From the NCBI GenBank assembly GCA_964016885.1, contig CAXHJY010001643.1, positions 1,137 through 65,136 on the forward strand: a DNA stretch of 64,000 nt, in the 5' to 3' direction. The translations under genes were made by a program, and so were the position numbers. The notes below the pieces were generated by a model. That model saw only the letters and a program-made list of their open reading frames with translations, did no database searches and was not told the origin of the DNA. This document shows, piece by piece, positions 28,123 through 36,456 of this stretch. The first letter of the stretch is position 1; each line of letters opens with the position of its first letter. This stretch comes from Eledone cirrhosa (lineage: Eukaryota).

Positions 28123-28188
28123 ATAGAAATGCCTTTCCTGATGATTTCTCCCGAATGAAACAGTTCTAGTCCTGTAGCAGCCATTTCT
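28123..28188 (+). ncRNA. Type I hammerhead ribozyme motif
   Basis: CTGATGA 28138-44; stem II TTC/GAA over a U.U pair; GAAA 28157-60; stem III CAG/CTG with loop TTCTAGTC; GUA cleavage triplet (after 28176); stem I AGAAATG/CATTTCT with an imperfect proximal part. Confidence 0.7.
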
Positions 28189-28659
28189 CTCTCTCTCTCT
28201 CTCTCTCCCTCTCTCTCTCTCTCTCTCTCTCTCTCTCTCTCTCTCTCTCTCTCTCTCTCTACGTATAGATATTGAGAGTCAGAGACTTACCTATAAACGT
28301 AAAGACAATTTGAGTGAGTGTACGTGCGCAGGAGCGTGTGTGCGTGTGTGCGCCTCAGTGTGTACGTGTTTGCACGTTCAGTGTATGTGTGTGAGTGTGT
28401 GCGCCTCAGTATGTGCGTGAGTGTACGTTCAGTGTGTGAGAGTGTGTGCGTGTGCGTACCTCAGTGTGCGTGTTTGCACGCTCAGTGTGTGCGTGCGTGT
28501 GTGTGTGTATGTGCGTGCGTGTGTGCGTGTGTGGGTGTGTGTGTGCGTGTGTGCGTGTGTGTGTGTGTGTATGTGCGCGTGTGTGTGCCAACGTTAAGGT
28601 AGAAACGCAGCCTGCATATTAGGTCGGTTCCATGCAGTCGTAAATGAAATTATACACAT

Positions 28660-30672
28660 ATACCGACCTTACATATACATATACGTTACATATACATACA
28701 TATACAGATACATTACATATACATATACGTTACATATACATACATATACAGATACATTACATATACATATACGTTACATATACATACATATACAGATACA
28801 TTACATATACATATACGTTACATATACATACATATACAGATACATTACATATACATATACGTTACATATACATACATATACAGATACATTACATATACAT
28901 ATACGTTACATATACATACATATACAGATACATTACATATACATATACATTACATATACAGATACATTACAGATACATTACATATACGTACATATACAGA
29001 TACATTACATATACATATACGTTACATATACATACATATACAGATACATTACATATACAGATACATTACAGATACATTACATATACATACATATACGTTA
29101 CAGATACATTACATATACAGATACATTACAGATACATTACATATACATACATATACGTTACAGATACATTACATATACAGATACATTACATATACATACA
29201 TATACAGGTACATTACATACGTATTTCTATACCAACGTTACGTTAGTGCTTATCACCAATAGTTTATGGTTCGCTGTTATGTCTGTGAACTACACTTATA
29301 GAATACACTACAAACACACACACGTACACACATAGTACCACACACACACACACATAGTACCACACACACACACATACACATAGTACCACACACACACACA
29401 CATAGTACAACACACACAGACACACACAGACACAAACAGACACACACATACACACATACACACACACACAGACACACATACAGACACACAGACACACACA
29501 CAGACACTCAGACACACACCAACACACATCTATATATATATATACGTGCATATATGTATACAAACACGTACATATGTATACATATATACATGTATTTAGA
29601 TAATATATATATATAAATATATATGTGTGTCTCTCTGTGCGTGTGTGTGTCTGTGTGTGTCTGTGTGTCTGTGTGTGTGTGTGTCTGTGTGTCTGTGTAT
29701 CTCTGTGTGTGTGGTTGTGTCTGTGTGCGTGTACGTGTGTCTGTGTGTGTGTGTAGATGTCTCTTGTGTCTGTGTGTGTGTGGTTGTGTCTGTGTGCGTG
29801 GTTGTGTCTGTGTGTGTGGTTGTGTCTGTGTGCGTGGTTGTGTCTGTGTGTGTGGTTGTGTCTGTGTGTGTGGTTGTCTCTGTGTGTGGTTGTGTCTGTG
29901 TGTGTGTGTACTATTGTCTGTGTGTGTATGTAGATGTCTCTCTGTGTCTGTGTGTGTGTGTGTGTGTGTAGATGTCTCTTGTGTCTGTGTGTGTGTGGTT
30001 GTGTCTGTATGTGTGCGTGGTTGTGTCTGTGTGTGTGTACGAGTGTCTGTGTGTGTGTGTGTGTACGAGTGTCTGTGTGTGTGTGTAGATGTCTCTCTGT
30101 GTCTGTGTGTGTGTGTGTGTGTAGATGTCTCTTGTGTCTGTGTGTGTGTGGTTGTGTCTGTGTGAGTGGTTGTGTCTGTGTGTGTGGTTGTGTCTGTGTG
30201 TGTGGTTGTCTCTGTGTGTGTGTACTAGTGTCTGTGAGTGTGTACTAGTGTCTGTGTGTGTGTACTAGTCTCTCTGTGTGTGTGTGTGTGTGTGTAGATG
30301 TCTCTTGTGTCTGTGTGTGTGTACGAGTGTCTGTGTGTGTGTGTGTACGAGTGTCTGTGTGTGTGTGTACGAGTGTCTGTGTGTGTGTGTGTACGAGTGT
30401 CTGTGTGTGTGTGTACGAGTGTCTGTGTGTGTGTAGCTGAAGGTATATATCTGGATGACGGAGCAGGACTGGCTATGTTGTATATGTATACACTATGTTG
30501 TATATGTATACACTATGTAGTATGTGTATACACTATGTATACACTATGCTGTATATGTATACACTATGTAGTATGTGTATACACTATGTATACACTATGT
30601 AGTATATGTATACACTATGTAGTATGTGTATACACTATGTATACACTATGCTGTATATGTATACACTATGTG
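28660..30672. repeat. Block of compound minisatellites (TACA-rich, TG-rich, TATACACTATG)
   Basis: Higher-order repeats of microsatellite-derived units at 28660-29220, 29620-30435 and 30474-30672. Confidence 0.85.
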
Positions 30673-31333
30673 TGAACAGAGATATATTTACTGGAGCTCG
30701 GCTGGTGTGAAAGGTGATGTACTTCACCTTGTAAGGTATTTAATCTTTATTGAGTAGGAAGACTTGTCAACTGTTAATTAACAGCAATGACATATAGACT
30801 ATTTGATGGGTGGTAGTAAGAGGATGTGTGAGGAAGAGCGACGTATGTATATATATATATACATATATATATATATATATATATATATATATGCGTATAT
30901 GTATATGTATATATATATGTGTGTGTGTGTGTATGAATATAAAATATGTATATACATTTGTACATATATATATATATAAACATATATGTCTATATTTATG
31001 TATCTATATATATGTATATATGTGTGTCTGTGTGTGTGTGTGTATAAGTGTGTATATACATGTGGCTGTTATAGTGTGAGAGATATAATATGGTGATAAA
31101 GATAAAGGAAAGAGAGAAGTTGTGATCTAGAAGGATATCAAAGTCAAATAAAAAACAGAACGACATACATGAGAGTGGAATAGCATTGAGTGGCAGAGAG
31201 AAAGATGGTCGACCAGGTGGACATACAAATGGATTAATAGGTAATTAGAATTGCATGCATACGTATTTATATATATACAGATACAATATATATATATAAT
31301 AATAAATTTGAAGACTAAAATCCAAAGAGGGTT

Positions 31334-31384
31334 AGTTTCAGCAGATCCTGTTAAGGGTGAAAGCAGCGATTCTTTGCTTAAACT
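31334..31384 (+). ncRNA. Second copy of the variant hammerhead (core CAGCAGA, probably inactive)
   Basis: AGTTT-CAGCAGA-TCCTGTTAAGGGT-GAAA-GCA..TGC-TT-AAACT; same family as 56556-56631. Confidence 0.5.
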
Positions 31385-31424
31385 TTAATCTGTTATTTTA
31401 ATATATATATATATATATATATAT

Positions 31425-34795: not shown

Positions 34796-34866
34796 TATTT
34801 TATTATGCGCATTTCAAAAACAAATATCATCATGCAATAATATTTGAGTTTTCATCAGATAAAACA
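34796..34866 (-). ncRNA. Type I hammerhead ribozyme motif (left arm of the large palindrome)
   Basis: Mirror copy: TCATCAG at 34852-58 and TTTC at 34812-15; stem II CAAATATTAT/ATGATATTTG; predicted cut between 34804 and 34803. Confidence 0.78.
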
Positions 34867-34988
34867 GGAAGACATGATATGAAGGTTAAAGACACTTGTG
34901 GATAGTGCAGTTTTAAATCAACATATCATATGTTGATTTAAAACTGCACTATCCACAAGTGTTTTTTAACCTTCATATCATGTCTTCC

Positions 34989-35059
34989 TGTTTTATCTGA
35001 TGAAAACACAAATATTATTGCATGATGAGGTTTGTTTTTGAAATGCGCATAATAAAATA
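34989..35059 (+). ncRNA. Type I hammerhead ribozyme motif (right arm of the large palindrome)
   Basis: Stem I TGTTTTAT/ATAAAATA; CTGATGA 34997-35003; AT-rich stem II; GAAA 35040-43; palindromic ATGCGCAT stem III; AUA triplet (after 35051). Confidence 0.75.
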
Positions 35060-36242
35060 CATGGAACTCTATTAACCATCTTTTCTTCTTATATATTATG
35101 TATACTCCAGTCCTACAAACTGTAGAGTGCTTCTTATCCGATATCTTTTATGTATTTATTGTACTACAATAAAACTCACCTCCTACACACACACACACAC
35201 ACATATATATATATATATATATATATATATATATATATATATATATATATATATATATATATATATATATATATATATATGTATATACATATATATACAT
35301 ATATATACATATATATATATATATATATATTAATATTTATATTTATATAAATATGTATATATACATATATACTTATACATGTGTATACATTTATATATAT
35401 ATATATATATATATATATATATATATATGTATATATATATAATATATATATATATATATGCTTATAAAAAACCCCGCATGACCAAGTCTTTAGAATAAGA
35501 GGGCACACAGGACAAAGACATTGGAAAAAAGAACCTAAACACAGACAGACTCTGTAACAGAATATACCTACAATACTTCTGATAAGAAATATATAATTTA
35601 CACACACGCTGAATTGTTTTTCTCCTCCAGGAAGGCTTACTTAGTAAGACTGTGTGTGTGTGTGTGTGTGTGTGTGTGTGTGTGTGTGTGTGTGTGTGTG
35701 CCTGTGTTTGTGTAGGCGTCATTGTATGCGTGTGTGTGAGTGCTCCTGTGTGTATGTGGGCATCCTTTTATATATGTGTGTATGTGCTTGTATGAGTATG
35801 TGGGTGTTATCTTGTGTGTGTTTCTGTGTTCATGTGTAAATACGTGCGGATATGCGCGAGGCTATTCGCAAATATTTGTGTTGGAATTTTTTGAAAATAT
35901 TTATTACGTTGTAAAACCAATTGCAATACCGCTTTCTTATCAGTGTGGCATTTTTTTCTATTCTTTGATAAAAGATAACACGATTCTGACCTCTAACGAA
36001 AGCCTCCTTCAAGGAGCCACATTTGACATGCAATAACGTTCTCCTATAAATTCTCTGAAATATTATTCTCATAAATTTCCCGCCGAATGTATTGTATGTT
36101 TATAGAAGCCACACAGCAGAACATAAGGCACCTATTGAGACAAACACGCACACGCAATCCAATGGTATAGCAAATATATATCATACATACAGTGGTATAT
36201 ATATATATATATATATATATATATATATATATATGTATATAT

Positions 36243-36456
36243 ATAGGAAAAGAGTCAGAACCCCGACGGCAGAGCTCAAGCCGTTTTGACAGCTATTTCT
36301 GGAGGCTATTTGAGTCCAGAAATAGCTGTCGAAACGGTTTGAGCTCTGCCGTCGTCGTAGTTCTGACTCTTTTCCTATTATCTACTCTACAACCCAAAGT
36401 ATCGAGTATTCTGGTGCGTTATGGTCCACCTGGTTCCTTACCACACTTCCTTCGTT
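36243..36456 (+). mobile_element. Penelope-like element fragment: hairpin plus tail (family A, copy 2)
   Basis: Inverted repeat 36243-36378 with an 11-nt loop; same tail as 31541-31618; lies between (TA)n tracts. Confidence 0.7.

Follow-up and report, generated by a model that had tools for sequence, protein, structure and literature searches.

The region at 28123..36456 (approximately 8.4 kb) of a 64-kb stretch of the 3.0-Gb genome of the cephalopod Eledone cirrhosa (contig CAXHJY010001643.1; the whole stretch is referred to here as the window) contains short islands that carry hammerhead ribozyme motifs and lie in TA repeats. Judged from their sequences, these islands are very probably short, 5'-truncated, and often folded-back 3' ends of Penelope-like elements (PLEs) of the Hydra type, inserted into the TA repeats, with a bulged hairpin that is likely to direct the start of the reverse transcriptase (RT). 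The region comprises ten insertions of seven families (A–G), in the order D, F, E, G, A, B, D, F, C, E. A preliminary description had presented it as a hotspot of several unrelated small ribozyme-bearing elements.

Parent elements of the islands

Each island is a dispersed repeat, for which the genome searches returned 748–4,036 first-look candidates, with 40 candidates being scored per search. The best full-length matches were 96–100% identical in families A, B, and C, 98% in the tail of F, 90–93% in E, and 81–91% in D. Families B–G are the ends of elements with open reading frames (ORFs) that encode an RT and a GIY-YIG endonuclease. The RT fragment adjoining one copy of B has 25,583 candidates, with open frames of up to ~894 amino acids, and B itself matches the repeats that flank ORFs of up to 894 amino acids at either end. 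Full-length tandem units, of ~3.3–3.5 kb (3.54 kb in E), have E or F at their borders, and F occurs both ~1 kb past an endonuclease and immediately ahead of an ORF. Family C lies ~1.0–1.2 kb downstream of the endonuclease, following an RT and endonuclease, while D follows an endonuclease in one locus and precedes the start of an ORF in another, and G follows an endonuclease.

A single ORF, with an RT and, at the C terminus, a GIY-YIG domain, is present in B, B2, C, E, and F, and D and G were seen from partial copies. The RW[KR] and DKT motifs take the form MRWKA/ADKTN in B, LRWRT/SDKTG in E, LRWRA/SDKTG in F, and IRWRA/SDKTK in D, with MRWRA in B2 and FDKTN in C, where the RW region was not covered. 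The CxCx5C linker occurs in B, B2, C, E, F, and G, and CxxC and CxH occur together in B, B2, E, and F; CCHH is absent, judged by eye, with a single cysteine in the GIY-YIG core. The diagnostic features of the Hydra clade, as defined in the available part of PMC8557442, are RWK, DKT, CxCx5C, the C-terminal GIY-YIG, CxxC, and CxH, and the supplement of that paper attributes both a (TA)n preference and a hammerhead to Hydra-1_Obim of Octopus bimaculoides. The elements analyzed here likewise insert into (TA)n, the family proteins are 34–56% identical to one another, and proteins of Argonauta hians were the sole named homologues of the RT (two of the nine matches). The Hydra clade is, then, already known in octopus, and families B–G are, by their sequence motifs, new families of this known clade. 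The earlier suggestion of several PLE families that target microsatellites in a cephalopod is supported. The small stand-alone ribozyme elements that it envisaged did not survive, given that six of the seven families are the ends of ORF-bearing elements of a described clade. No Hydra-type coding remnant was found in the 64-kb window itself.

A Naiad-type RT was considered and rejected, as the full ORFs show a C-terminal endonuclease, and the elements do not fit the Naiad/Chlamys type of PLE (N-terminal GIY-YIG, DKA, and no canonical hammerhead), the endonuclease being C-terminal and the motif DKT. The B and B2 proteins (L075:5850-6650) have long low-complexity inserts between the RT thumb and the endonuclease, which make them larger than typical Hydra ORFs.

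Family A is a non-coding unit of 1.2–1.4 kb, arranged head to tail, with a distance of ~1.22–1.36 kb from one hammerhead to the next. It shares both hairpins (see below) and the signature of the untranslated region (UTR) with the Hydra-type families, and is likely to be a non-autonomous client of these elements. The proposal of non-autonomous retrozymes thus retains some value for this family, which fits a retrozyme-like unit, but not for the other six. For A alone, the case for and against a retrozyme-type mode of replication is evenly balanced.

The bulged hairpin and the ends of the copies

The GAGTRCTT tail motif that had been noticed after several of the islands is present, and proved to be the most informative feature of the original description. 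It is the 3' arm of a stem-loop of ~20–45 nt, RCUC...2-nt bulge-GAGY-RCU, in which a 2-nt bulge precedes GAGYRCT, with an upstream RCTC partner, an upper stem, and a variable loop. A background sample of 40 stretches of 10 kb (400 kb), taken at round coordinates on large chromosomes, contained 34 hairpin sites, in comparison with one in the reversed sequence and 0–2 in five shuffles, and the bulge begins with T in all 34. When the upper pairs were required to be Watson-Crick, bulges of 0, 1, 2, 3, and 4 nt were found 13, 3, 29, 0, and 1 times, respectively. The outer base pair covaries between A-U and G-C, being Watson-Crick in 13 of the 14 purine-based clusters, among the 24 obtained by unguided clustering.

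The hairpin is present twice per unit in families A, B, B2, E, and F, once in the tail and once in the following 5' UTR, just before the start codon, with the two copies 57–90 nt apart. Clean hairpins were also recognized by eye in published Hydra consensuses, with two at the 5' end of Hydra-1_Ajap and one each near the 3' end of Hydra-2_Ajap and Hydra-2_Amil, that is, four hairpins in three of the six consensuses, from coral and sea cucumber. In a literature search on stem-loops in the pseudo-LTR (pseudo-long terminal repeat) or tail of PLEs, only PMC11167929 matched; Repbase and the subscription journals lay outside its scope, and an earlier mention is possible.

The copies end at two discrete 3' sites per family. 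In a scan of ~60 nt around each hairpin (~24 nt ahead of it and 35 nt past it), which included the tail-query loci, the TA run starts 5–9 nt before the base of the hairpin in 221 of the 247 scored ends, and every scored end falls on a native TA step. At the other side of the copies, 52 of the 73 tail-bearing arms of E start in stem II and one at the cut site, so that the possibility of copies beginning at the cleavage site was rejected. The 5' junctions of the C arms cluster near a CATATG palindrome; all these junctions are BLAST ends, whose positions are smeared by microhomology and by divergence among subfamilies, especially in D. The sequences of the fold-back junctions vary between copies, a sign that the RT stalls and switches template anew with every insertion, and this variation led to the rejection of C and E as fixed units of the MITE type (miniature inverted-repeat transposable elements). 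Three E fold-backs (L051:1650-1860, L220, and L221) have a piece of Hydra-type ORF as their center or inverted partner, which in L221 comes from family B, and their sequences indicate template switching between families.

In the mechanism proposed here, the GIY-YIG domain would nick (TA)n, while the protein would bind the bulged RNA hairpin, and the nicked TA would act as primer at the UA immediately 5' of the hairpin in a tandem RNA produced by read-through. Reverse transcription would then start at a UA step 5–9 bases upstream of the hairpin, and the two hairpins would provide two start sites, one producing an insertion arm with a tail, and the other an arm without one. Copying would often stall in the stems of the hammerhead or in short palindromes, and switch template, which would generate both the fold-backs and the half-hammerheads. 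Each insertion would leave TA on both sides, so that TA-rich spots would gather nested copies, in which the hammerheads may be passengers of the terminal repeat. The position of the ends suggests that the hairpin is likely to fix both of the internal RT starts from which the PLE tail arises.

It is possible, but unlikely, that the elements are of the Hydra type while the hairpin acts at another step, as a signal in DNA or complementary DNA (cDNA) for the endonuclease, a promoter, or a translation element, with the ends adjoining it through chance TA steps. The tail of the Drosophila virilis Penelope is required for the recognition of DNA by the endonuclease, as reported in the available part of PMC11167929, and the location of the second hairpin, shortly before the start codon, together with the restriction of scored ends to native TA steps, would suit such a role. 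Against this, the terminal repeats contain many other TA steps, yet in five families the ends cluster ahead of both hairpins, with a nearly fixed spacing, and the G-U pair in the upper stem of D suits RNA.

A number of observations weigh against the reading of the islands as Hydra-type ends with a hairpin-directed start. The clusters are related by descent, so that the Fisher test of the covariation (p = 0.003) overstates their independence, ten of the 24 clusters have no purine base pair (chance sites or the wrong partner), and pairing at the second upper position did not exceed that of slid controls (13 of 24 vs. 7–15). A different hairpin, which lacks the consensus, comes after the second end of D, the second hairpin of A has only a single upper pair, and the hairpins of Hydra-1_Obim, Hydra-1_Crog, and Hydra-1_Amil are imperfect or unclear by eye. 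The narrow span of the end scan and its inclusion of tail-query loci also count here, as does its omission of family C and the first hairpin of B, for which there was no usable reference. The clade was assigned by motifs rather than by a profile or by a tree that includes named members, and two RT fragments and four ORFs returned nothing above the cut-off in Pfam, while no parental RT-endonuclease ORF was found for family A by tblastn in 30 loci. In addition, the hammerhead was not the lowest-energy fold in monomers of the copies at 28123, 31332, and 34987.

Ribozyme cores and the insertions of the region

Type I motifs with CUGANGA...GAAA are located at 28138+, 32269+, 32792+, 34858-, and 34997+, and a variant hammerhead at 31339+. 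A strict type I descriptor (the core, three stems, and an NUH site in type I order) was passed by 32792+, 34858-, and 34997+ (the direct arm of C), that is, by families B and C, while A and D follow the type I order under a relaxed descriptor only. All five of the canonical cores described previously are present, but the motifs at 28138 (D), in which stem I is damaged, and 32269 (A), in which the base of stem II is weak, are less complete. The variant that had been placed at 31334 corresponds to 31339+, and the four or more half-motifs are truncated copies, with GAAA at 31498, 31680, and 36331, and fragments near 33094 and 33170. Dinucleotide shuffles yielded one strict match in 300 for the region and none in 300 for its non-repeat part, in comparison with the three observed, as the earlier description had predicted for motif density. 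A covariance-model search went against it, with no match in the region at the Rfam gathering score, and no hammerhead among the 150 rows listed, of 191, at E ≤ 10, which were sub-threshold hairpin or microsatellite matches.

The canonical core is found in families A, B, C, D, and G, whereas E and F deviate from it. The hammerhead is the lowest-energy monomer fold in B, the minus-strand copy of C, and native E. Palindromic, dimer-type stems III, which had also been anticipated, are present in three families, and the predicted bimolecular pairing of the palindromic stems ranges from -3.2 to -10.5 kcal/mol. By their sequence, the canonical hammerheads would probably cleave slowly, those of A, B, C, and G as dimers.

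The core of family F is CAGAAGA (U4A) in 21,943 exact sites, against 90 with the canonical core (of 22,033). A U4A change is expected to impair the uridine turn. In family E, the 3' half has 62,608 exact sites, and the 5' core TTGANAA (A8, U3) has 5,240, with all four bases at N, while a C3 pattern has 1,752 sites, with CTGANAA in all among the 100 matches listed. Approximately 89% of the exact E arms are without the 5' core (62,608 vs. 6,992). A canonical E core within 40 nt was discarded, as its 49 matches are heterogeneous, chimeric, or due to chance, with the true core being the variant ~60 nt away. The U3-A8 pair is a known active covariant in the available text of PMC4209133 and PMC3088659, although the interpretation of E as a cleanly compensated U3-A8 ribozyme is weakened by the 1,752 C3-pattern sites. 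The term U4A does not occur in PMC3088659.

The wide spread of E and F, with their drifted cores, suggests that full cleavage activity is probably not needed, and the sequences indicate that cleavage is probably not needed for insertion. PMC11167929 describes a Poseidon element whose tail is bounded by two sites within the RNA at which reverse transcription starts, and whose ribozyme mutants still insert; the scarcity of E arms that start at the cut site agrees with this insertion in vitro without cleavage. A more general interpretation, toward which the balance tips only slightly, is that Hydra-type elements across phyla may use one bulged stem-loop, present twice, as the address of the RT start. 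The ~200,000 hammerheads estimated below would have been spread in this way, with core-drifted families spreading equally, the hammerhead serving as a structure or a passenger, and any RNA with the hairpin (that of family A, for example) being insertable into TA repeats.

That the islands might instead be self-contained non-autonomous retrozymes or small hairpin elements, which replicate through circular RNAs cut by the hammerhead, is very improbable. The head-to-tail organization of A, the many E arms without a 5' core, and one tandem array of short F copies are compatible with this possibility. However, B–G continue into ORF-bearing elements, the fold-back junctions vary, as expected if they are formed anew at each insertion, the E fold-backs contain no complete ribozyme, and the 5' ends of the copies are seldom at the cut site.

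The first insertion of the region, of family D (28053..28189, both strands), consists of a tail-bearing minus arm (hairpin 28109-28088) joined at stem I of the hammerhead to a tail-less plus arm, whose hammerhead (core 28138, +) has a damaged stem I and a predicted cut after 28176. It is followed by a family F insertion at 31297..31400, with a partly deleted inverted tail and a variant hammerhead on the plus strand, whose core, CAGCAGA at 31339, differs from the CAGAAGA of the family. A fold-back of family E (31428..31620, +), truncated in stem II, retains only the 3' half (GAAA 31498), with the tail and start hairpin at 31546-31572, and the insertion of G (31643..31920, +) has a 3' half with a palindromic stem III (GAAA 31680) and a long-loop tail hairpin from 31757 to ~31825. 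The 3' end of family A (32215..32465, +) has its core at 32269, a palindromic stem III, a predicted cut after 32332, and a tail hairpin at 32396-32434. That of B (32670..32900, +), which has no tail, has its core at 32792, with a predicted cut after 32836, and is 77–83% identical to the terminal repeat of full-length ORF-bearing elements.

A degenerate fold-back fragment of D (33090..33164) adjoins a 3' end of F (33165..33290, +), which is truncated within the hammerhead and has its tail hairpin at 33207-33255. The family C insertion (34766..35183) is formed by an inverted tail-less arm (core 34858, minus) and a direct arm, with its core at 34997 and a predicted cut after 35051, which join near 34926 at a CATATG palindrome, with a tail hairpin at 35104-35131. 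The motifs at 34796 (minus) and 34989 (plus), previously taken for unrelated elements, are the two arms of this one inverted repeat, and the combination of an inverted tail-less arm with a tail-bearing arm is the usual structure of a PLE insertion, as described in the available part of PMC8557442. The second E fold-back (36245..36457, +) has GAAA at 36331, and a tail hairpin from 36384, with one change in its 3' flank. The TA flanks that had been reported for the islands are present. An antisense ribozyme as a built-in feature of D and F was rejected, given that native copies carry the ribozyme and the tail on one strand.

Elsewhere in the window, there are two further D fold-backs and one intact 3' end of F with a U4A hammerhead (6051-6239, 44923-45170, and 56453-56618). 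Further short, unassigned TA-flanked repeats, with matches among the genomic loci fetched, are located at 32910-33020 and 34440-34585. A very common SINE-like repeat (short interspersed element; >100 matches among the fetched loci), which we take to resemble the MetaSINE type, is present at 27560-27880, as two adjoining copies, and near 5836, 16563, 39643, and 52001. Tandem short copies of F or C, with TA runs between them, were observed at G000:C3:74691687-74692611 (L062) and G000:C28:87259251-87260189 (L178), and these arrays were probably amplified locally.

Genome-wide load and comparison with known systems

The strict descriptor found 28 hammerheads in the 40 background stretches, with none in 24 of them, one in seven, two in six, and three in three, and found three in the whole window. 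This corresponds to ~1 per 14 kb in the sampled genome, and extrapolates to ~210,000 strict hammerheads genome-wide (bootstrap 120,000–307,000), with both arms of a fold-back being counted. Tail hairpins reach 5 per 10 kb in the region, against a background mean of 0.85 (range 0–4 in the 40 stretches), and the counts follow those of the TA runs (Spearman 0.63). The region is thus at the top of the ordinary range, crowded but not unique, and within reach of nesting driven by TA. The hotspot proposed previously is a modest one; three of the 40 arbitrary stretches equal its strict hammerhead count, and the accumulation is mild.

That the locus serves as a special landing site, with a selective accumulation of ribozyme elements, can hardly be credited. 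The nine family fragments in 8.4 kb, against 0–6 per stretch, were found with queries drawn from the region's own islands, which biases the comparison, and this excess, like that of the five hairpins over the background maximum of four, comes from a region chosen after the fact, while the strict counts of the three equal stretches, the correlation with TA runs, and the rest of the window, which is below the genome mean, all speak against it.

The background also contained a further TA-flanked family (L124:3185, the minus strand of L124, and L156:3037), with a compact U3-A8 hammerhead, core TTGAAAA, and a palindromic stem III. At least four more hammerhead families were observed in L121, L132, L135, L141, L144, L146, L148, L154, and L155, some with the tail hairpin, and others, with stem III ACTAGT or AGTACT, without a clear one; these latter families may belong to another PLE clade.

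The choice of internal start sites by PLEs, the optional tail, and the role of the hammerhead are stated as open questions in the available parts of PMC8557442 and PMC11167929. A covarying hairpin at a fixed distance from both ends is a candidate for the minimal cis signal of a TA-targeting RNA-to-DNA insertion, and the families in which a U4A or A8 core occurs naturally, each of them with young copies in the thousands, offer a ready test of the need for cleavage. For cephalopod genomics, these families represent a dense class of elements that is poorly detected by Rfam and Pfam (no matches here), and a source of very many perfect fold-backs. The main text of a 2026 repeat annotation of Octopus vulgaris (PMC13282606) counts Penelope-like families, and makes no mention of Hydra, hammerheads, or ribozymes.

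The closest relatives are the elements of the Hydra clade, such as Hydra-1_Obim (Craig et al. 2021, PMC8557442), which, in the available text, share the C-terminal GIY-YIG, RWK, DKT, CxCx5C, CxxC, and CxH, together with the (TA)n targeting, a terminal repeat that contains a hammerhead, copies that are inverted and 5'-truncated, and a tail at one end. The present genome differs in that it contains no fewer than six families with ORFs, whose fragments number in the tens of thousands, and in having units of at least 3.3 kb with UTRs of ~1 kb (the published units being mostly <3 kb), tails of 57–100 nt (30–40 in the published elements), U4A and A8 cores in two families, and hammerhead sequences unlike those of Hydra-1_Obim. 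That part of PMC8557442 contains no mention of the start hairpin.

In Poseidon, from Anolis carolinensis (Frangieh et al. 2024, PMC11167929), two internal RT starts define the tail, as proposed for the families here, the target is likewise AT-rich, and ribozyme cleavage is not required in vitro. Poseidon belongs to another clade, and its starts lie inside an AC-rich stem-loop in the ORF, with no homology to the target, while those proposed here lie 5–9 nt upstream of a conserved bulged UTR hairpin, at UA steps that match the TA target. The minimal hammerheads of PLEs (Cervera and De la Pena 2014, PMC4209133) are also type I, with a palindromic helix III thought to act as a dimer, and occur, as far as the available part describes, in masses of single truncated copies and opposite-strand pairs, with the U3-A8 covariant in Schistosoma. 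Several of the families here differ in their long or branched stem II or stable stem III of 4–5 bp, and neither the fixed U4A core nor the C3-A8 subfamily found here is present in that part of the paper. The non-LTR retrozymes (Li et al. 2026, 10.64898/2026.07.22.740005), in the part available, resemble family A in being non-coding and head to tail, in having ends like those of PLEs, and in the single type I hammerhead of each unit, although the unit of A, at 1.2–1.4 kb, exceeds their range of 51–972 bp, and A forms partial tandems with inverted copies, not long arrays. What the present sequences chiefly add to these systems is a hairpin that is a candidate for setting the RT start, ribozyme cores that have drifted, and the load carried across the genome, and the locus itself is ordinary for its genome.

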